DNA of 64,000 nucleotides from Anaeromyxobacteraceae bacterium (GTDB taxonomy: Bacteria > Myxococcota > Myxococcia > Myxococcales > Anaeromyxobacteraceae): contig JASGHJ010000001.1 in the NCBI GenBank assembly GCA_047602405.1, forward strand, positions 192,001 through 256,000, written 5' to 3'. The notes beneath the pieces are model-generated. The model made no database searches and was not told the origin of the DNA. It worked only from the letters and a program-made list of their open reading frames with translations. The translations under genes and the position numbers were made by a program. Positions 53,743 through 63,688 of this stretch are shown here, piece by piece. Position 1 is the stretch's first letter. Each line of letters begins with the position of its first letter.

Positions 53743-55032
53743 CTACAGCATCGCCCGCCGGAGGTCCGCGATCACGCCGGCGAGGTGGGTGACGAACCGC
53801 GCCGCCTGCGCGCCGTCGATGACCCGGTGATCGTACGAGAGCGAGAGCGGCAGCATGAGCCGCGGCTGGAAGGCCTTCCCGTCCCACACCGGCCGGGTGA
53901 CGGTGCGCGAGACGCCCAGGATGGCGACCTCGGGCGCGTTGATGATGGGCGTGAAGAAGTGGCCGCCGATCCCGCCCAGGCTCGAGATGGAGAAGGTGCC
54001 GCCCTGCATGTCGCCGGAGGCGAGCTTGCCGTCGCGCGCCTTCCTCGCGAGCTCGGCGGTCTCGGCGGCGAGCTCGAGGACGCCCTTCCGGTCCGCGTCC
54101 TTCACGACCGGGACCATGAGGCCGTTCGGCGTGTCGGCGGCGAAGCCGATGTGGAAGTACTTCTTGAGGACGAGCTCGTCGCCCTGCAGCGAGCTGTTCA
54201 TCTCCGGGAACTTCCGGAGCGAGGCCACGACCGCCTTCACGAGGAACGCGAGCAGCGTGACCTTCGGGCCGCCCGCCTTCTCCTGCTCCTTCGCGAGCGC
54301 CTGGCGCAGCGCCTCGAGGTCGGTGACGTCGGCCTCCTCGTGCTGCGTGACGTGCGGGATCATCACCCAGTTGCGGGCGAGGTTCGCCGCGGAGAGCTTG
54401 CGGATCCGGGCGAGCGGCTTCGCCTCCACCGGGCCGTACTTCGCGAAGTCGACCCTCGGCCAGGGGAGGAGGTCGAGCCCGGCGCCGCCGGCGGGGCGGT
54501 TCACGAGCTCCTTCACGAACCGCTGCACGTCCTCGTGGAGGATGCGGCCCTTCGAGCCGGTGCCGTCCACCTTCGCCACGTCCACGCCGAGCTCGCGGGC
54601 GAACTTCCGGACCGCGGGGGAGGCGTGACTGACGGTGGGGTGATCGGAGTCGGGAGCAGGAGCGGTGACGGGAGCAGGAGCGGGTGCAGGTGCTGCTGCC
54701 GGAGCAGGGGCAGAAGCGGCAGGGGCGGGAGCGGCCGGAGCTGCAGCGGCAGAAGCGGGAGTGGGCTTCTCCTCCACCTTGCCGGGGGCGGCCTCGGCTG
54801 CGTCGAGCGTCAGCACGATCGAGCCCTGCTTCACGCGATCGCCGACCTTGATCTTCACGTCCTTGATCGTGCCGGCGACCGGGCTCGGCACGTCCATCGT
54901 CGCCTTGTCGCTCTCCAGCGTGGCGAGCGCCTGCTCGGCCTTCACGGCCTCACCGGGCTTCACGTGGATCTCGATGACCGGGACGTCCTCGTAGTCGCCG
55001 ATGTCCGGGACCTTGACCTCGATGGCGCTCAT
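53743..55032 (-). CDS. aceF: Pyruvate dehydrogenase E2, dihydrolipoyllysine acetyltransferase
   Basis: Single lipoyl domain ESDKA, HASPAVRK, DHRVIDG. Confidence 0.95.
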   Translation of the reverse strand: MSAIEVKVPDIGDYEDVPVIEIHVKPGEAVKAEQALATLESDKATMDVPSPVAGTIKDVKIKVGDRVKQGSIVLTLDAAEAAPGKVEEKPTPASAAAAPAAPAPAASAPAPAAAPAPAPAPVTAPAPDSDHPTVSHASPAVRKFARELGVDVAKVDGTGSKGRILHEDVQRFVKELVNRPAGGAGLDLLPWPRVDFAKYGPVEAKPLARIRKLSAANLARNWVMIPHVTQHEEADVTDLEALRQALAKEQEKAGGPKVTLLAFLVKAVVASLRKFPEMNSSLQGDELVLKKYFHIGFAADTPNGLMVPVVKDADRKGVLELAAETAELARKARDGKLASGDMQGGTFSISSLGGIGGHFFTPIINAPEVAILGVSRTVTRPVWDGKAFQPRLMLPLSLSYDHRVIDGAQAARFVTHLAGVIADLRRAML

Positions 55033-55036
55033 GTCG

Positions 55037-57700
55037 TCACACCGTCCAGGGGGCCGGCTTCTTCGGGTCGATGCCGTACTTCTTGATCGCCTCGGCCACC
55101 TTGCCGGCGGGCACGGCGCCCTCCTCGGCGAGCGACCGCAGCGCCGCGATCGTCACGTGGTGACGGTCGACCTCGAAGAACTTGCGCAGCTTCTCGCGGG
55201 TGTCGGACCGGCCGAACCCGTCGGTGCCGAGCACCGTGTAGCGGCGCGGCACGTACGGGCGGATCTGCTCGGCGAAGGCGCGGACGTAGTCGGTCGAGGC
55301 GACGACGGGCCCGCGGGTCTTCCCGAGGCACCGCTCGACGTAGGACGGCGTCTTCTTGCCCTCGGGGTGGAGCAAGGCCTCGCGCGCGCGGGCCTGGCCC
55401 TCGCGGCCGAGCTCGGTGAAGCTCGGGCAGCTCCACACGTCGGCGTCGACGCCCCAGTGCGACTTGAGGAGGTCGGCGGCGGCGATCACCTCGCGCAGGA
55501 TCGTGCCGGAGCCGAGGAGCTGGACGCGCGGCGCCTTGCCGTCGTCCTTCCCCGCGCCCTTGAAGAGGTACATCCCCTTCAGGATCCCCTCGGCGGCGCC
55601 CGCGGGCATCGCCGGGTGGACGTAGTTCTCGTTCATCACCGTCAGGTAGTAGAAGACGTCCTCCTGCTCCGCGACCATGCGGCGCAGGCCGTCCTGCACG
55701 ATGACGGCGAGCTCGTACTGGAACGTCGGATCGTAGGAGACGCAGTTCGGGATGGTGGCGGACACGAGGTGCGAGTGGCCGTCCTCGTGCTGCAGCCCCT
55801 CGCCGTTCAGCGTCGTGCGCCCGGCGGTGCCGCCGCACAGGAAGCCGCGCGCCCGCATGTCGCCGGCCGCCCAGGCGAGGTCGCCGATCCGCTGGAACCC
55901 GAACATCGAGTAGTAGACGTAGAAGGGGATCATCTGGACGTTGTGCGTGGAGTACGCGGTCGCCGCCGCGATCCAGTCGCACATGCCGCCCGCCTCGGTG
56001 ATGCCCTCCTGCAGCACCTGGCCCGCCTTGTCCTCGCGGTAGAACGCGAGCTGCGCGCGGTCCTCCGGCGTGTAGAGCTGGCCGACCGAGCTCCAGATGC
56101 CGAGCGCGCGGTACATGCCCTCCATGCCGAAGGTGCGGCCCTCGTCCGGGACGATGGGCACGATCCGCTGGCCGATGGCCTTGTCGCGCGCGAGCGTCTG
56201 GATCATCTGCACGAGCGCCATCGTGGTGGAGATCTCGCGGTCCTCGGTGGAGTCGAGGAAGCGCTTGAAGGCGTCGGGCCCCGGCACGGGCAGGGACGGC
56301 GTCACCTTGCGGCGGCGCTTCGGCCGGTCGCCGCCGAGCTCCTTGCGGCGGGCCTTCAGGTACTCGGCCTCGCGCGAGCCCTCCTCGAACCGGAGGAACG
56401 GCACCTTCTCGAGGTCGGCGTCGGCCACCGGGATCTGGAACCGGTCGCGGAAGCTCCGGATCGCGTCGGTGTCCATCTTCTTCTGCTGGTGCGTGATGTT
56501 CTGGGCCTCGCCGGCCTCGCCCATGCCGTAGCCCTTGATCGTCTTCGCGAGGATGACGGTGGGCTGGCCCTGGTGCTGCGAGGCCTCGTGGTAGGCCGCG
56601 TACACCTTGAACGGATCGTGGCCGCCGCGGTTGAGGCGCCAGATGTCCTCGTCGGAGAGGTCCGCGACGAGGTCCTTCAGCTCCGGCGTGTTGAAGAAGT
56701 GCTCGCGGACGTAGGCGCCGTTCTTCGACTTGTAGGTCTGGTAGTCGCCGTCGACCGACTCGAGCATCCGCTTCTGCAGGATGCCCTTCTTGTCGCGGGC
56801 GAGCAGCTTGTCCCAGTGCCGGCCCCAGACGACCTTGATGACGTTCCAGCCGGCGCCGCGGAAGACCGCCTCGAGCTCCTGGATGATCTTGCCGTTGCCG
56901 CGGACCGGGCCGTCGAGCCGCTGCAGGTTGCAGTTCACGACGAAGATGAGGTTGTCGAGCTTCTCGCGCCCGGCCATGTGCAGGGCGCCGGTCGACTCGG
57001 GCTCGTCCATCTCGCCGTCGCCGCAGAACGCCCAGACCTTGCGGCCCTTCGTCTCCACGATGCCGCGCGAGTCCAGGTAGCGCATGAAGCGCGCCTGGTA
57101 GATCGACATGATCGGCCCGAGCCCCATCGACACGGTGGGGAACTGCCAGAAGTCGGGCATCAGCCACGGGTGCGGGTACGACGAGAGCCCCTTCCCGTCG
57201 ACCTCCTGGCGGAAGCTCTCGAGCTGGGTGTCGCTGACGAGGCCGAGCAGGTACGCGCGCGCGTAGATGCCGGGGGCGGAGTGGCCCTGGATGTAGACGA
57301 GGTCGCCGCCGCGCTCCTCGGTCCACGCCTTCCAGAAGTGGTTGTAGCCGACGTCGTAGAGCGTCGCGGCCGAGGCGAAGCTCGCGATGTGCCCGCCCAC
57401 GTTGGTGGTGCGGTTCGCGCGCACGACCATCGCCATCGCGTTCCACCGGATGTAGTGGCGGATGGTCTGCTCGAGCGAGAAGTCGCCCGGGAAGCGCGCC
57501 TGGCGATCGACGGGGATGGTGTTGAGGTAGGCGGTGTTCGCGCTGAAGGGCAGCCACGCGCCCGACTTCCGCGCGCGATCGATCAGCTGCTCGATGAGGA
57601 AGTGGGCCCGCTCGGGCCCCTCGCGATCGAGCACGCCCTCGAGGGCTTCGAGCCACTCCGAGGTTTCCTGGGGATCGAGGTCGGCAGGCTTCTGGTCCAT
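55037..57700 (-). CDS. aceE: Pyruvate dehydrogenase E1, homodimeric
   Basis: DPQET.EW, GGHIAS, SSYPHPWLMP, GDGEMDEPES, GEGLQHEDGHS. Confidence 0.96.
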   Translation of the reverse strand: MDQKPADLDPQETSEWLEALEGVLDREGPERAHFLIEQLIDRARKSGAWLPFSANTAYLNTIPVDRQARFPGDFSLEQTIRHYIRWNAMAMVVRANRTTNVGGHIASFASAATLYDVGYNHFWKAWTEERGGDLVYIQGHSAPGIYARAYLLGLVSDTQLESFRQEVDGKGLSSYPHPWLMPDFWQFPTVSMGLGPIMSIYQARFMRYLDSRGIVETKGRKVWAFCGDGEMDEPESTGALHMAGREKLDNLIFVVNCNLQRLDGPVRGNGKIIQELEAVFRGAGWNVIKVVWGRHWDKLLARDKKGILQKRMLESVDGDYQTYKSKNGAYVREHFFNTPELKDLVADLSDEDIWRLNRGGHDPFKVYAAYHEASQHQGQPTVILAKTIKGYGMGEAGEAQNITHQQKKMDTDAIRSFRDRFQIPVADADLEKVPFLRFEEGSREAEYLKARRKELGGDRPKRRRKVTPSLPVPGPDAFKRFLDSTEDREISTTMALVQMIQTLARDKAIGQRIVPIVPDEGRTFGMEGMYRALGIWSSVGQLYTPEDRAQLAFYREDKAGQVLQEGITEAGGMCDWIAAATAYSTHNVQMIPFYVYYSMFGFQRIGDLAWAAGDMRARGFLCGGTAGRTTLNGEGLQHEDGHSHLVSATIPNCVSYDPTFQYELAVIVQDGLRRMVAEQEDVFYYLTVMNENYVHPAMPAGAAEGILKGMYLFKGAGKDDGKAPRVQLLGSGTILREVIAAADLLKSHWGVDADVWSCPSFTELGREGQARAREALLHPEGKKTPSYVERCLGKTRGPVVASTDYVRAFAEQIRPYVPRRYTVLGTDGFGRSDTREKLRKFFEVDRHHVTIAALRSLAEEGAVPAGKVAEAIKKYGIDPKKPAPWTV

Positions 57701-57894
57701 TGGGCTCGTACTCCTAACGGGGCGCGAGGTCAGGGTAAAGGATTCCTGCGGGGGCGCCGGGCCGGGGGATATCGCGTTCACCCGTGGTCTGGGTTGCCCC
57801 ACCCCGGGCAGCACACCCCACACCCGGGGCCCTTGACCCCCTCGTCGGGCGTTTGCGACATAGGGCGCTCACCCCCGCCGTACCAGGCCGCACC

Positions 57895-59139
57895 ATGAAA
57901 AGACCTCTCCGACTCGTCCTCACCGGCGTGGGGGCGCTCGCCCTCGCGATCGCCCTCGCGGCCGGCGCCGCCACCCTGTACGCGATGCGTCAGTTCGAGG
58001 CCCGGCACGCCCTCGTCCTGCCCGCCGCCTTCACGCCCGCCCGGAGCCCCGAGGCGCTCGCCCGCGGCAAGCACCTCTTCGACACCATCTGCGCCCAGTG
58101 TCACGTCGACGCGAAGGGGCTCGCCGCCGGCCAGCACATGGCCGACGTGCCCGAGTTCCTCGGCAAGTTCTACACGGCCAACATCACCCGTCACCCCGTG
58201 GGCGGCATCGGCGCCTGGTCCGACGCGGACCTCGTGCGCGTGCTCCGCACCGGCGTGAAGCGCGACGGCCGGCTCGCGGTGGTCATGCCGCAGTTCACGG
58301 GGCTCTCCGACGACGACCTCGCCGCGATCGTCGGCCACCTCCGCTCCGACGACCCGGCCTTCACGCCGGTCGCCGAGCGCCAGCCGCCGGTCGAGGGCAC
58401 CGTCGTCGGGAAGCTCATCCTCACCTTCGTCGCCGGCGCGGACCCGAAGCCGATGCCGGCGCACCCGGTCGTCGCGCCGCCGGTGGGGCCGACCGCCGAC
58501 TACGGCCGCTACCTCGTGAAGGACGTGCTCCTCTGCGGCGACTGCCACTCCCCGGGCTTCGCGGGCGACAAGTCGGAGGGCAAGGAGGCCTTCACCGGCG
58601 GCTTCGAGTTCGTGGGCGCGCGCGGGGAGAAGGTCTTCTCCGCGAACCTCACGCCGGACGCCGACACCGGCATCGGCCGGATGACCGAGGCCGAGTTCGT
58701 GCGCGCGCTCCGCGAGGGCGTGCGCCCCGACGGCACGACGCTCCGCCCGCCCATGCCCCCCTTCCGCACGCTCGACGAGGTGGAGGCCCGCGCCGTTTAC
58801 GCGTGGCTCCGCACGCTCGCCCCGGCGCACCACCCGGTACCCCGGCCCGCGGCGGACCCCCTGCCGCCGGAGGGCGGCGTGGCCGCGCGGTTCGTCACGC
58901 TCGGCTGCGTCGCGTGCCACGGCGAGGGCGCCGCCTTCCGCGAGAAGCTCCGGCCCGCCGCGGGCCAGCCGCTCGAGGAGGTCGCCGCGCGCATCCTCCA
59001 CCCCGAGCGCTTCAACCCGCGCTCGCCCATGCCGCCGTTCGCCGGCCGCATCGACGAGGCCGAGGCGCGCGCGCTCGCTGCGCACGTGCAGGAGCTCTCG
59101 CGCCGCCTGCCGCCGCCCGCCCAGGTGGCCGACCGCTGA
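57895..59139 (+). CDS. Tri-heme cytochrome c, membrane anchored
   Basis: CAQCH, CGDCH, CVACH; NIT/NLTPD..TGIG repeats. Confidence 0.85.
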   Translation: MKRPLRLVLTGVGALALAIALAAGAATLYAMRQFEARHALVLPAAFTPARSPEALARGKHLFDTICAQCHVDAKGLAAGQHMADVPEFLGKFYTANITRHPVGGIGAWSDADLVRVLRTGVKRDGRLAVVMPQFTGLSDDDLAAIVGHLRSDDPAFTPVAERQPPVEGTVVGKLILTFVAGADPKPMPAHPVVAPPVGPTADYGRYLVKDVLLCGDCHSPGFAGDKSEGKEAFTGGFEFVGARGEKVFSANLTPDADTGIGRMTEAEFVRALREGVRPDGTTLRPPMPPFRTLDEVEARAVYAWLRTLAPAHHPVPRPAADPLPPEGGVAARFVTLGCVACHGEGAAFREKLRPAAGQPLEEVAARILHPERFNPRSPMPPFAGRIDEAEARALAAHVQELSRRLPPPAQVADR

Positions 59140-59167
59140 CTTCACCGCGGGCCCGAGGACCGCTACC

Positions 59168-59863
59168 ATGCGGCCCTTGGGCCCGCGCGACCAGCGCCCC
59201 GCCGGCGAGGATCCGGACGCCGCGCTCGTGGAGCGCGCGCGCGCCGGCGACGCCGCCGCGTTCACGGCGCTCGTGCGCCGGCACGGGCCCGCCGTGCAGC
59301 GGGTGGCCCGGCTGTTCGTGCGCGAGCCCGCCTCCGCCGAGGAGGTGGCCGCCGACGCCTGGCTCGCCGCGCTCGAGGGGCTGGCGCGCTTCGAGGGGCG
59401 GGCCGCGTTCCGCTCCTGGCTCCTCGGCATCACGGCCAACAAGGCGCGGACCCGCGGGGTGCGCGACGCCCGGGCCGTGCCGTTCTCCGCGCTCGCGTCG
59501 GCGGAGGCGCAGTCCCCCGCCGAGGACGTCCTCGCCGGCCGGTTCGACGGCGGCGGGCACTGGCGCACGTTCCCCGCGGAGTGGCACGAGGACTCGCCCG
59601 AGGCGCTGGCGCTCCGGCAGGAGACCCGGGGTGTGCTCGAGCGGGCGATCGGCCGCCTGTCCGAGGCCCAGCGGGCCGTCATCACGCTGCGGGACCTCGA
59701 GGGGCTGCCTTCCGAGGAGGTCTGTAATCTCCTGGGGCTCACGGAGACCAACCAGCGGGTGCTCCTGCACCGGGCCCGGACGCGCGTCCGGGCGGAGCTG
59801 GAGCGCCACCTTTCCGGGGACGCCGGAACCGGCGAGACTGACGCAGGGGAGAACGTGTCGTGA
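59168..59863 (+). CDS. ECF RNA polymerase sigma factor
   Basis: GDAAAF, FEGRAAFRSWL, VLLHRAR. Confidence 0.9.
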   Translation: MRPLGPRDQRPAGEDPDAALVERARAGDAAAFTALVRRHGPAVQRVARLFVREPASAEEVAADAWLAALEGLARFEGRAAFRSWLLGITANKARTRGVRDARAVPFSALASAEAQSPAEDVLAGRFDGGGHWRTFPAEWHEDSPEALALRQETRGVLERAIGRLSEAQRAVITLRDLEGLPSEEVCNLLGLTETNQRVLLHRARTRVRAELERHLSGDAGTGETDAGENVS

Positions 59864-60105
59864 TGCTGGGCTGCCGCGACGTGACCGCGCTCGTGACCGA
59901 CTACGTCGAGGGCCGGCTCTCGCTCGTCGACCGGCTGCGGTTCCGGTTCCACCTCGTCGGCTGCCGCGGCTGCCGCGCCTACGTGCGGCAGATGGCGCTC
60001 ACCTCCCGCTCGCTCGGCGCCTTGCCGCCGCCGGCGCTCGACGCGCACGTGGAGGCGGAGCTCCTGCGCCGGTTCGAGGGGTGGAAGAAGTCGAGCGGGG
60101 GCTGA
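59860..60105 (+). CDS. Zinc-finger (zf-HC2) anti-sigma factor
   Basis: C...HLVGCRGC; overlaps the sigma factor stop. Confidence 0.85.
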   Translation: MMLGCRDVTALVTDYVEGRLSLVDRLRFRFHLVGCRGCRAYVRQMALTSRSLGALPPPALDAHVEAELLRRFEGWKKSSGG

Positions 60106-60124
60106 GATCCGGTAGATCCGGTAC

Positions 60125-60966
60125 GTGCCCGCGGAGTTCGACAGCGACGTCACGCGCCCGCTGGACCGGCCGAGATCGAGCGCCCGCGACGACCGCCGCC
60201 TGCTCTTCATGGGGACGGGCGTCCTCGTGTTCGTGGCGGTCGTCGACGCCGCCCTCGCGGGCCTGGGTCCGCGGACGCCGCTCTGGGCGGCGTGGATCGC
60301 GCTGTTCCTCGCGAGCGCCTGGGCGATGGGCGCTTCTCCGGGGCCGTCACCGCCGCCCTCGCCTACGTCCCCGGCCTCGGCGCGATCGTCTTCCTCACCG
60401 CGCTCGCCGCGGTGAGCGGTGGGGCCACCAGCCCGTTCCTGCAGTTCCTCCTCACGATCCCGCTCCTCAGCGCCATCGCCCGGCCCGGGCGCATCGTGGA
60501 GCCCAGCCTCTTCGGCGTCGCTTCGGTCGTGGCGGGGGCCACCCTGCTCGTCCTCGGCGGCGCCCCGGGGACGGACCTCGTGCTGTGGGTCGCCACGACC
60601 GCCGCCGCGGTGACCTTCGCGGTGGTCTCCGGCCGGCTCGAGGGCCGGCGCCAGGCGCGCTACCTCGAGTCGGAGCGCGAGCGCGCGGACGCGCTCGCCC
60701 GGCTCGCCGAGATCGAGCGGGCGCAGGCCGCCGCCCAGGCCTGGGTCGCGAAGGGCCAGCTCGCCGAGGAGGTCGCGCACGCGCTCAACAGCCCGCTCGG
60801 CGCGGCGCGCTCGTCGCTCGCGTACGCGCGGGCGGAGCTCGAGCAGGGCCGGATCGCCCCGGCGCTCGAGGCGATCTGGGACGCCGCCGAGTGCGTGGAG
60901 CGCATCCAGATCGCGATCGCGTCCTTGCAGGTGCTGCACCCGCCGCAGGCGGACCGCCGGACCTGA
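60125..60966 (+). CDS. Membrane protein ending in a HisKA-like dimerisation domain, no HATPase (frameshift near 60339)
   Basis: Several TMs, then GQLAEEVAHALNSPL H-box. Confidence 0.55.
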
Positions 60967-61003
60967 CTCGAAGGCCTCTGCGCGCCCGCGCTAGACTCCG
61001 GCC

Positions 61004-61204
61004 ATGTGGAACAAGTGCAGCGTCTGCAAGCAGCCGATCGCGTACGGCGCGCCGTACCTGAAGTGCGCGGTCTCCACCTGCAACCGGAAGAGCTTCCAGC
61101 TCTACTTCTGCTCCGACGCCTGCTGGGACGCCCACAACCCCGACCAGAACCATCGCAACCCGGCGTACACCGAGCACGTCGCGCCCAAGGCGCCGGGGGT
61201 GTGA
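61004..61204 (+). CDS. Small Cys-rich (Zn-finger-like) protein
   Basis: CSVC, CAVSTC, FCSDACWDAH. Confidence 0.65.
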   Translation: MWNKCSVCKQPIAYGAPYLKCAVSTCNRKSFQLYFCSDACWDAHNPDQNHRNPAYTEHVAPKAPGV

Positions 61205-61305
61205 CGAAACGGCGCTCCGCACGGGCGCGGTTCTCGAAGCGGCCGGAGCCATCGCGGTGGTAGCCTCCGAGCTGCGCCAGCGGCGCCCGCGAGGGGAAGC
61301 GTCAC

Positions 61306-61770
61306 ATGAGCAAGTGGACGATCGGTGCGGTCCTGGCGGTCACCTCGCTCGCGGCGCCCGCCGCGGCGCGGGCGACGATCTTCTCGGACGAGCTCGGCAA
61401 GTGCATGGTGGAATCGACCACGCAAGCCGACCGCAACGCGATGGTGCGGTGGATGTTCGCCGCCGTCGCGAAGCACCCCGCGGTGAAGGACGTCGTCTCG
61501 GTCTCGCCCGAGCAGCTGGAGGCCGCCTACAAGGGGATGGCGGATCTCATGATGCGCCTGCTGACGAAGGACTGCCGCGAGAAGGCGAGGGCGGCGTTCA
61601 AGGCCGACGGCCCGAGCGCATTCCAGGGGAGCTTCCAGGTCCTCGGGCAGGTGGCGGGGCGCGAGATGTTCGCCGCCCCCGAGGTCGCCCAGAGCATCGC
61701 GGGCCTGACCCGGCATCTCGACGAGGGTCAGCTGAAGGCGCTCGTGCAGGAGACGCCGGCGGCGAAGTAG
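61306..61770 (+). CDS. Secreted hypothetical protein
   Basis: Signal peptide; LGKCMV.ST...VRW, RLLTKDC, F..LGQVA. Confidence 0.7.
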   Translation: MSKWTIGAVLAVTSLAAPAAARATIFSDELGKCMVESTTQADRNAMVRWMFAAVAKHPAVKDVVSVSPEQLEAAYKGMADLMMRLLTKDCREKARAAFKADGPSAFQGSFQVLGQVAGREMFAAPEVAQSIAGLTRHLDEGQLKALVQETPAAK

Positions 61771-61791
61771 CGCGCGCAGCGCACCGCGACC

Positions 61792-62469
61792 TCACCCGAA
61801 TGCGTCGGAGCGGGGATCCCAGAAGTCGCCCGACAGGCCCAGGCCCGAGAAGATCGCCCGCATCTCGTCCGGCTGGGGTCGCCTGGAGCTCTCCTCGAGG
61901 CGGGTCGCGTACCAGGTCGTCGCGAGCGTCCAGAGCTGGGGCATCGTCACGATCGGCCGCACCGGGCTCCCGGCCGCCTCGCACCACTCGTGAACCCGTT
62001 CTTCCGACCGGAAGAAGAGCATGTTCCTTCAGGTGAAGACGATGTCGTCCCACCACCTCGCCGCCGGGACGAGGCAGTGGAAGAGCCAGTCCGAGCGCGC
62101 GGGCCCGTCGGCCCCCACCTCGAGGTGGAGCGGCTCGCCCGACCGCTCGCAGCGGGAGTGGACCGTGCCCGGCCGGCGCAGCGCGGCGGGGACGCCCAGG
62201 GCGTCCCAGGCGCAGTTGGCGAAGTAGCGCACCCCGCCGGACTCGACGGCGTGCTGGGTCGGGACGCCCGAGAACGGGGAGGCCATCCGGATCGAGCGGC
62301 CGTCCGGCTCGAGGACGAGGAGGCGCTGGGCCCGGAGCCTCGGGTAGGCCTCGAGCACGTCCTCGACGTTCGTGCCGACCCGCCCGGCCACGTCCCCCGG
62401 AGACGGCGGCCCTCCCGTCTCCGCAAAGTGCCGGTAGATCGCCAGCTTCACCTGAACGTCGAAGTCCAC
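61792..62469 (-). CDS. MerB-like (organomercurial lyase family) protein, probable selenoprotein with UGA at 62029-62031
   Basis: MASPFS, YFANCAWDA, WWDDIVFT-UGA-RNMLFFRSEE continuing in frame. Confidence 0.8.
61992..62026 (-). other. Bacterial SECIS-like hairpin
   Basis: TTCTTCC-GGTC-GGAAGAA stem-loop with the loop 19 nt after the UGA; GAAC/GTTC lower stem. Confidence 0.7.
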
Positions 62470-62596
62470 GGCCCCTCCCGGCGCGGCGCGCGACGCCAGC
62501 CTTCCACACCGGTCGAGGCGCGGCAACGGTGACGACGGGTTCGTGGGTCGGCGACGATCCCGAGATCTCGCGGGTCGCGTTCCGAGGGACGCGAGC

Positions 62597-63370
62597 TCAG
62601 CGCGCCTTCTTGCCGGTCACGTAGCCGATCTGCACCGCGCCCAGCGAGAGGATCCTCGGCAGCCAGGAGAGGAGCGTCTGCACGCTGCGGGCCGCGTCCT
62701 TCTCGCCGTCGAAGCCGGCGTCGCGCAGCGTCCTGGCGTACTGGCCGAGGTGCCGGACGTCGACGATCAGCACGCGCCCGCCGACCTTCAGCACCCGCGC
62801 GATCTCGCGCACGGCGGTCTCTCGCTCGCCGGCGTCGTAGATGTTGTGAATCGCCGCGCTGGAGAGCACGACGTCGAAGCTCCTGTCGTCGAAGGGCAGC
62901 TTGCGTGCGTCGGCCGTCTGCACCTCGACGCGCTCGGCCACGCCTTCGATCGCCGCGTTGTGCAGCGGCGCCGCCGGCTGGTTGCCGCTGAGATCCTCGG
63001 CTTGCCAGATGTCGATGCCGATGGCCCGGCCCGTGCTCAGGCGCCTCGCTGCCCCGACCAGGAACAGCCCGCGCCCGCAGCCGACGTCCAGCACGCGCTC
63101 GTCGCCGCGCCATTCGAGCAGGTCGAGATACGCCTCGCGCTCGCGGACCTTGCCGAACTTGCTCGACCAGATCATCCAGGCCGCCATCACGCCGCAGGAC
63201 AGGCCTGCCGAGATCAGCGGGCGGCCGAGCAGCGCGAAGGGCGACTCCCCGTTCCACAGACCCGCCGCCCGCGTGATCAAGGAGAGGATCCCGAGCGCGC
63301 CCACGATCAGCAGGTTGCGGACCACGGGCGGCGCATCGAGGCCGTAGTCGGCGCGCGGGGGTCTGGTCAT
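62597..63370 (-). CDS. Class I SAM-dependent methyltransferase
   Basis: YGLDAP, VLDVGCGRG, GIDIW, LPF...FDVV, RVLKVGG. Confidence 0.88.
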   Translation of the reverse strand: MTRPPRADYGLDAPPVVRNLLIVGALGILSLITRAAGLWNGESPFALLGRPLISAGLSCGVMAAWMIWSSKFGKVREREAYLDLLEWRGDERVLDVGCGRGLFLVGAARRLSTGRAIGIDIWQAEDLSGNQPAAPLHNAAIEGVAERVEVQTADARKLPFDDRSFDVVLSSAAIHNIYDAGERETAVREIARVLKVGGRVLIVDVRHLGQYARTLRDAGFDGEKDAARSVQTLLSWLPRILSLGAVQIGYVTGKKAR

Positions 63371-63426
63371 CGCCGGCATCTTGGGACGGGCGTATCTGCG
63401 CTGACAAGGACCGTCCCTTCCGAAGA

Positions 63427-63688
63427 GTGAACCCGGAATCCGTAAGGTCATTCTCCGATGAAGTCCCTGCGGGGACGGCCGCGAGATGCCGAGCCCGATG
63501 GGCTCGCGCAGACGTTCTGCCCGCGTTCTCCGCCGTCTCTTCCATCCTGCGCATACGTCTGCGCCGCTTCGCGCACTCGCACCCGCCTGGCGGACACCTG
63601 ACTCGCCCCTCGAGCTTGAGGCGACGGCCGAGCTGCACGCCCCATCAGTTACACCACTGGTGGAGGGGCTTACGGATTCCGGGGTCAC
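63427..63688. mobile_element. MITE-like or internally deleted IS remnant
   Basis: 20-bp terminal inverted repeats, 19/20 identical: GTGAACCCGGAATCCGTAAG ... CTTACGGATTCCGGGGTCAC. Confidence 0.6.

Follow-up and report, generated by a model that had tools for sequence, protein, structure and literature searches.

Do two adjacent open reading frames (ORFs) separated by a single TGA form one gene in which that codon is read as selenocysteine, and what would such a gene encode? The question is raised by a locus on the minus strand of a 64,000-nucleotide stretch of Anaeromyxobacteraceae DNA (hereafter the window). Translation table 11 cuts the reading of 61792–62469 into ORFs 62029–62526 and 61792–62022. 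A preliminary description of the window proposed that these two ORFs share a frame, with a single TGA between them. We find this to be correct. Read from 62469 to 61792, the gene comprises 146 codons beginning with GTG, a TGA at 62031–62029, a further 78 codons, and a terminal TGA at 61794–61792 (Table 1). The peptide read through the internal TGA is WWDDIVFT-U-RNMLFFRSEE. The two ORFs are very likely a single gene, judging from the sequence comparisons below.

Table 1. Features of the locus, with positions in the window.
Feature	Position	Strand	Basis or remark
Entire gene, 225 codons and a stop; protein of MerB fold with a single recoded TGA (predicted)	61792..62469	-	PF03243, 95 bits, residues 66-187
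GGGAGG, Shine-Dalgarno-like, 4 nt 5' of GTG 62469	62474..62479	-	read from sequence
In-frame TGA, codon 147, predicted selenocysteine, MerB Cys159 position	62029..62031	-	alignment; TGA in 81/81 loci
Predicted bacterial SECIS	61994..62020	-	7-bp upper stem 61999-62016, GGUC loop 62006-62009, variable lower stem
C86-A-W-D89, equivalent to MerB Cys96 and Asp99	62203..62214	-	alignment; both invariant in 81/81 loci
Cys107, equivalent to MerB structural Cys117	62149..62151	-	alignment; 80/81 loci
N-terminal winged-helix-like domain, residues 1-65	62275..62469	-	weak Z 4-4.7; also within MerB alignments
Conserved C-terminal extension, about residues 193-225	61795..61893	-	beyond MerB superposition, which ends at 192-195

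Standard gene callers were expected to split this gene, and the protein databases show that they do. Among the best 120 of 5,692 database matches, 116 end directly before the TGA. The remaining four read through or around it: two are apparently frameshifted, one has Trp, and one has Arg. The commonest database length for close homologues is 146 amino acids, which equals the distance from GTG 62469 to the TGA. The sequence downstream of the TGA is coding-like, with a third-position GC content (GC3) of 0.91 and a conserved frame. A search of sequencing runs listed no RNA run as holding the gene. Two DNA runs contained 8% of the sequence words; their tables were the same and no contig reached 99%, so they come from relatives rather than from the source organism.

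The internal TGA is invariant among close relatives. A scan of species-level genomes gave 492 confirmed relatives in 48 of the 64 parts of the collection. The best 80 of these span Acidobacteriota, Verrucomicrobiota, Chloroflexota, Gemmatimonadota, Eisenbacteria, and other groups. TGA occupies the codon-147 column in all 81 loci (the best 80 of 492 plus the window), always directly preceded by Thr, and the frame remains open for 74 to 110 codons beyond it. The preliminary description had suggested looking for alternation of Cys and UGA at this column, and we observe such alternation across the wider family. Among the best 150 representatives of 50% clusters, 62 end at residue 146, 59 read through, and 29 are other fragments. 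At the protein level, the 59 read-through representatives carry Cys in 50 cases, Trp in three, and six single other residues. The truncated representatives are known as protein only, although one matches a retrieved TGA locus exactly. A distant branch is represented by 52 metagenome loci, of which 47 extend over the column; TGA is present in every one of the 47, and GGUC at the same spacing in 39.

We therefore regard it as very likely, on this comparative evidence, that UGA codon 147 specifies selenocysteine, directed by SelB and a hairpin. The competing view is that the TGA is a genuine stop, whether in a pseudogene or in a protein split on purpose, or else an assembly error or a Trp codon under an alternative code, and this is very improbable. 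A true stop would be expected to drift to TAA or TAG, so its constancy as TGA in 81/81 and 47/47 loci, never as TAA or TAG, counts against a stop, as do the conserved downstream frame and the Cys of distant homologues. Trp does appear at the column in four database proteins; however, the conserved Trp codons that flank it are TGG in 81/81 loci, which does not fit a Trp code, and the window gene and many of its relatives use TGA as their terminal stop. Two verrucomicrobial copies broken by frameshifts would agree with a loss of function. These copies (G611:C5:28361-29030 and G576:C1:150582-151245), and a further one with a second stop (L043), might reflect either decay or assembly error.

The element expected to direct recoding is also present. 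The 7-bp stem and GGTC loop described previously are found at 61999–62016, with the loop beginning 19 nt past the UGA. Published consensus rules for bacterial SECIS elements specify a loop of 3–9 nt, an upper stem of 4–16 bp, a G in the first two loop positions, a distance of 16–37 nt from the UGA, and a minimum free energy (MFE) of -7.5 or lower (PMC13188914). The hairpin satisfies all of these, with a loop of 4 nt, a stem of 7 bp, GG, 19 nt, and -12.3 kcal/mol. Its stability relative to shuffled sequences is modest and not significant alone (z -0.3 to -1.8 over four sequence windows), and a comparable GGUC hairpin occurs at 16–24 nt after 67 of the 89,127 TGA triplets of the genome. The significance of the hairpin therefore lies in its conservation across loci, not in its stability alone.

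This conservation is seen at both the codon and the base-pair level. The A/U-rich stem encodes F-F-R-S-E-E. The codons for F152, F153, R154, and S155 are single-codon in 81/81, 81/81, 80/80, and 80/81 loci, respectively, whereas in the rest of those genes the same codons account for 76%, 76%, 30%, and 37% of the respective residues. At the other 78 conserved degenerate columns, the commonest codon is fixed in 30–90%, compared with 99–100% at codons 152–155. Across 22 hand-chosen loci, the stem is paired in 92.9% of cells, against 49–68% when slid, with shuffle controls for this pairing being inflated by the relatedness of the sequences. In the same loci, both partners vary in three of the seven stem pairs, whereas the first loop G never varies. 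A Calditrichota copy (L046:1205-1251) has a compensatory change, in which the closing C-G pair becomes A-U, the loop becomes GUUC, and Arg becomes Ser.

The preliminary description likened the loop to that of the Escherichia coli fdhF SECIS, and the parallel holds. Both elements lie within the coding region and have a G-first loop with GGUC (PMC13188914, Fig. 2A), which begins 18 nt after the UGA in fdhF and 19 nt after it here. Unlike fdhF, the hairpin here has a 4-nt loop on an A/U-rich 7-bp stem and no Rfam SECIS match; an Rfam scan of 61700–62600 returned no SECIS family and three matches at chance level.

The source genome has the machinery needed for selenocysteine incorporation. Of the selA, selB, selC, and selD genes that had been suggested as a check, we detected selA, selB, and selD over their cut-offs, together with a tRNA-Sec, in this genome of 6.16 Mb (74% GC, 98% complete). 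Its selD (G000:C2:257317) itself contains one in-frame TGA (GAG-U-ACK). No GGUC hairpin follows that TGA at fdhF-like spacing, so it lends no support to a genome-wide GGUC rule. Among host metagenome-assembled genomes (50 of 79 examined), selB is found in 43, in 41 of them over the cut-off; the other seven, with no selB match, belong to a set of incomplete genomes. In a verrucomicrobial family, selA occurs in 22 of 23 carriers of the gene versus 63 of 98 non-carriers (Fisher p 0.0015); the remaining carrier has selB. In Gemmatimonadota, selB occurs in 22 of 23 TGA carriers versus 140 of 178 others (p 0.037). Both statistics should be read against high baselines (64–79%) and the non-independence of kin, and four of the genomes counted as non-carriers are flagged as unpublished (G290, G265, G165, and G566). 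A phylum-wide sample of Verrucomicrobiota had no carriers among 250 genomes besides the centre genome, and the comparison was therefore made on the family-level sample.

The read-through protein is predicted to adopt the MerB fold. Its PF03243 match, well over the cut-off of 27 bits, spans the TGA. We built an AlphaFold2 model from a 30-row alignment with Cys substituted for selenocysteine (pLDDT 90.8). A Foldseek search with this model returned 11 MerB chains at E values of 8.5e-11 to 3.8e-7. By VIA, Z was 17.7 to MerB2 5C17 (rmsd 3.1, 187 aligned) and 13.9 to MerB 3F2G, with the next match at 4.7. The sole strong fold matches are thus MerB structures. Alignment with solved MerB agrees with the earlier proposal, placing C86 and D89 on Cys96 and Asp99, and codon 147 on Cys159. 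Together with the TGA/Cys column, the hairpin, and the sel genes, this supports the 225-residue selenocysteine-containing MerB-like protein that had been proposed. Identity to MerB is 21–24%, Asn precedes the first Cys where MerB has Trp95, and there is no Cys160. Additional cysteines are conserved at positions 132 (73/81 loci) and 163 (79/81 loci). The C-terminal tail past about residue 195 has no counterpart in the MerB structures compared.

A selenocysteine-containing MerB-like protein had indeed been reported before, as the preliminary description noted. This is SaoL (NF040728), a selenoprotein of the SAO locus named as a MerB-like organometallic lyase and described from 45 of 15,511 genomes, all of them anaerobes, with a CU motif and a nine-gene SAO locus (Haft & Gwadz, bioRxiv 10.1101/2022.07.06.499078). 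The window protein and SaoL share the PF03243 fold, selenocysteine (predicted here) at the MerB Cys159 position, and equivalents of Cys96 and Asp99. The database entries of both are cut at the UGA, and for both the function, substrate included, is a prediction. We nonetheless reject identity with SaoL. The window protein scores 38 bits against the SaoL model, whose cut-off is 140, and six other TGA-bearing relatives score 29–55. The motif is TU here versus CU (or CC) in SaoL, and about 78 residues follow the selenocysteine, compared with about 50. The nine-gene SAO locus is absent among the seven window neighbours, and no neighbour family recurs in more than 6 of 81 loci. In addition, SaoL was reported from 45 genomes, whereas the scan of the species-level collection confirmed 492 stretches, spread over 48 of its 64 parts. 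Since the tests for SaoL membership fail, the family appears to be a separate and much larger group. Proteins that lean towards SaoL (86–105 bits, still under the cut-off of 140) group apart on a long branch of their own in a FastTree tree, and all 16 scanned of the 70 homologues of one such protein fall under the SaoL cut-off.

Canonical MerB (EC 4.99.1.2) can be set aside as well. The window protein resembles R831b MerB (PDB 1S6L, 3F0O, 3F2G) and Bacillus MerB2 (PDB 5C17) in fold and in its equivalents of Cys96, Asp99, and Cys117. It differs in the predicted selenocysteine at Cys159, the lack of Cys160, Asn in place of Trp95, and the C-terminal extension. Against the canonical MerB models NF033555 and NF009710, it scores 45 and 54 bits, under cut-offs of 200 and 193, respectively. 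Unlike canonical MerB genes, it has no mer operon, and MerA is mostly not found in its hosts. The TGA at Cys159, the low scores, and the lack of mer context led us to reject this identity. The window protein passes no model in NCBIfam (June 2026). It is predicted to work like SaoL and MerB, yet appears to be a member of neither curated family. In the consulted parts of the literature searched, SaoL is the only MerB-type selenoprotein, as in the table of a 2026 review (PMC13188914; likewise PMC9312934), and the main texts of PMC12013277, PMC2398784, and PMC13326102 contain no MerB; Haft & Tolstoy 2025 (PMC12013261) or BSepDB may cover the clade. We conclude that the locus is a real and intact gene, very likely with a recoded UGA, from an extensive and so far overlooked clade of selenoproteins within the MerB superfamily.

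The gene stands apart from any mercury resistance operon. Among the seven neighbouring ORFs (57784–63427), we detected no mer gene, in agreement with the preliminary description, and no Sao model. A class I methyltransferase gene (62597–63427) lies upstream on the same strand, and a convergent gene without an assigned family lies downstream. The genome contains no other PF03243 gene, HgcA was not found in it (98% complete), and its best MerA score is 357 bits, under the cut-off of 454. MerA exceeds that cut-off in 3 of 50 host genomes. A scan of 135 adjacent ORFs, selected with a rough coding score, gave no match to mer or ars families at E 1e-15. The wider window also holds a 66-residue Cys-rich ORF (61004–61204, plus strand; CxxC, CxxxxC, CxxxCW) with no family over cut-off, possibly a small metal-binding protein; a gene for a multi-haem cytochrome c, after which come genes for an ECF sigma factor and a zinc-finger anti-sigma factor (57784–60105, plus strand); and a pyruvate dehydrogenase E1/E2-like pair (53743–57823, minus strand).

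The distribution of the gene suggests that it moves independently. No neighbour is conserved among the 81 loci, and 36 same-genus genomes contain no close copy, with the distant branch present in two. The nearest tree neighbours of the window gene are one acidobacterial and one planctomycete gene. For these reasons, the gene is likely a mobile stand-alone gene. The FastTree tree (130 rows, including 13 of the 81 close loci) has weak deep support and so permits no conclusion on the number of selenocysteine origins.

How might such a protein act? MerB binds R-Hg+ through Cys96 and then through Cys159, uses Asp99 to protonate the carbon, and transfers Hg(II) to MerA; deletion of merA renders MerB-bearing cells hypersensitive (PMC10114901). 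The three MerB catalytic positions are kept here, which makes protonolysis with a selenolate second ligand the most likely reading. SelB bound to the hairpin would deliver Sec-tRNA to the UGA. Cys86 would then bind R-M+, as in the MerB model, the selenolate of Sec147 would weaken the C-M bond by adding a further soft ligand, and Asp89 would protonate the leaving carbon, releasing R-H. In the last and weakest step of this scheme, the gene would act alone; with neither mer regulation nor MerA, the metal would go to cellular thiols or remain bound. A selenolate would capture trace substrate more avidly than a thiolate. Hg-Se bonds are also very stable and could block turnover.

The phrase organometal lyase-like, used in the preliminary description, reflects fold and active-site residues only, and the activity and substrate it implies are predictions. 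That the protein cleaves some carbon-metal or carbon-metalloid bond is, in our judgement, somewhat probable. For the narrower proposal, that it cleaves carbon-metal bonds with organomercurials as the most plausible substrates, the chances appear evenly balanced, given a model and sequence comparisons. The lyase reading is weakened by the general lack of MerA, the sensitivity that follows merA deletion, the stability of Hg-Se bonds, and the low identity to MerB.

An alternative is a protein that binds its ligand rather than turning it over. It would be a Cys/Sec clamp for scavenging or sensing a soft metal or organometal, and would act a single time or else as a chaperone or sensor. MerA would be lacking to strip the product (357 of 454 bits here, and over the cut-off in 3/50 hosts), and MerB2, the nearest of the solved structures, has low activity (PMC10114901). 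Furthermore, three of the ten long representatives scanned are Cys-form relatives fused to a LuxR helix-turn-helix domain, which fits sensing. Pure binding, however, would not obviously need the proton donor Asp89, which is invariant in 81/81 loci, and a search for longer proteins in the core clade (a weak test, with two hits) revealed no regulator fusion; one of the two hits is an apparent frameshift fusion with an upstream epimerase-type gene. We consider binding without turnover rather unlikely. Among the Cys-form relatives themselves, P0177, P0210, and P0265 carry the LuxR domain at the C-terminus, and P0260 has an N-terminal GNAT acetyltransferase; in these proteins, the MerB-like domain may be a sensor. 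Redox or group-transfer chemistry of the thiol/selenol pair on a non-metal substrate, with the MerB fold reused, would accord with the view that most bacterial selenoproteins are redox enzymes (PMC9312934), with the additional conserved Cys132 and Cys163 (73/81 and 79/81), with the conserved C-terminal extension, and with neighbours unrelated to metals. Such chemistry is nonetheless improbable, with all three MerB catalytic positions retained, strong fold matches to MerB only, and no conserved redox partner nearby.

The same lyase chemistry might also be directed at an organoarsenical or organoantimonial substrate, such as methylarsenite. The distant selenocysteine-bearing branch scores 48–60 bits with the family profile, and in one same-genus genome a member of it immediately precedes arsR-acr3-arsC. 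Close arsR homologues also occur in 4 of the 52 metagenome loci from that branch; in two of the four they are accompanied by acr3 and arsC, and in one by an ArsA-like ORF. However, these loci may represent copies of a single mobile island, and the distant branch has Glu in place of Asp99. The 80 core loci, for their part, gave one weak ArsR-like match, about 3.5 kb away. An arsenic or antimony substrate for the window protein is thus quite unlikely. The lead for an arsenic link comes from L114:1342-8345 (G070:C39), with L133, L142, L156, and L158 belonging to the same lead: a single-Sec member precedes arsR-acr3-arsC, in which arsC is apparently frameshifted, and is divergent from a TtrA/B-like molybdoenzyme pair that falls under all cut-offs.

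Relatives of the window protein include other forms of the active site. Members of the distant branch with a C/U-G-F-E motif (L122–L151 and L166) have TGA at both catalytic Cys positions. Across that branch, TGA occupies the Cys96 position in 28 of 51 scorable loci and the Cys159 position in 47 of 47. An intact 225-residue Cys-form relative with CAWC (Cys for Asp99) is annotated as hypothetical on Ralstonia megaplasmids (L113:3495-4172, CP022482.1), and 98 of the 149 plasmid records with a match are from Ralstonia.

The selenocysteine reading preferred here would bring into the bacterial selenoproteome a large family whose annotation is systematically wrong. Surveys for merB have used Cys96, Asp99, Cys117, and Cys159 as criteria (PMC8261052). 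Since gene calls in this family end before the Cys159 position, such surveys would discard or mis-score its members, and the organometal-cleaving potential of soil lineages may be under-counted. It is possible, though doubtful, that a stand-alone enzyme for methylmercury cleavage, dependent on selenium and missed by merB surveys, occurs in soil-type bacteria of many phyla. If so, this would represent a MerA-independent demethylation route, possibly ending in selenium-bound mercury. It would also be a candidate for part of the 'mer-independent' demethylation described in soils, where Gemmatimonadota are enriched among 13C-methylmercury-labelled taxa (PMC12130583). Finally, because the same active site occurs naturally as Cys/Cys, Cys/Sec, and Sec/Sec, the contribution of selenium to MerB-type chemistry is open to direct experiment.
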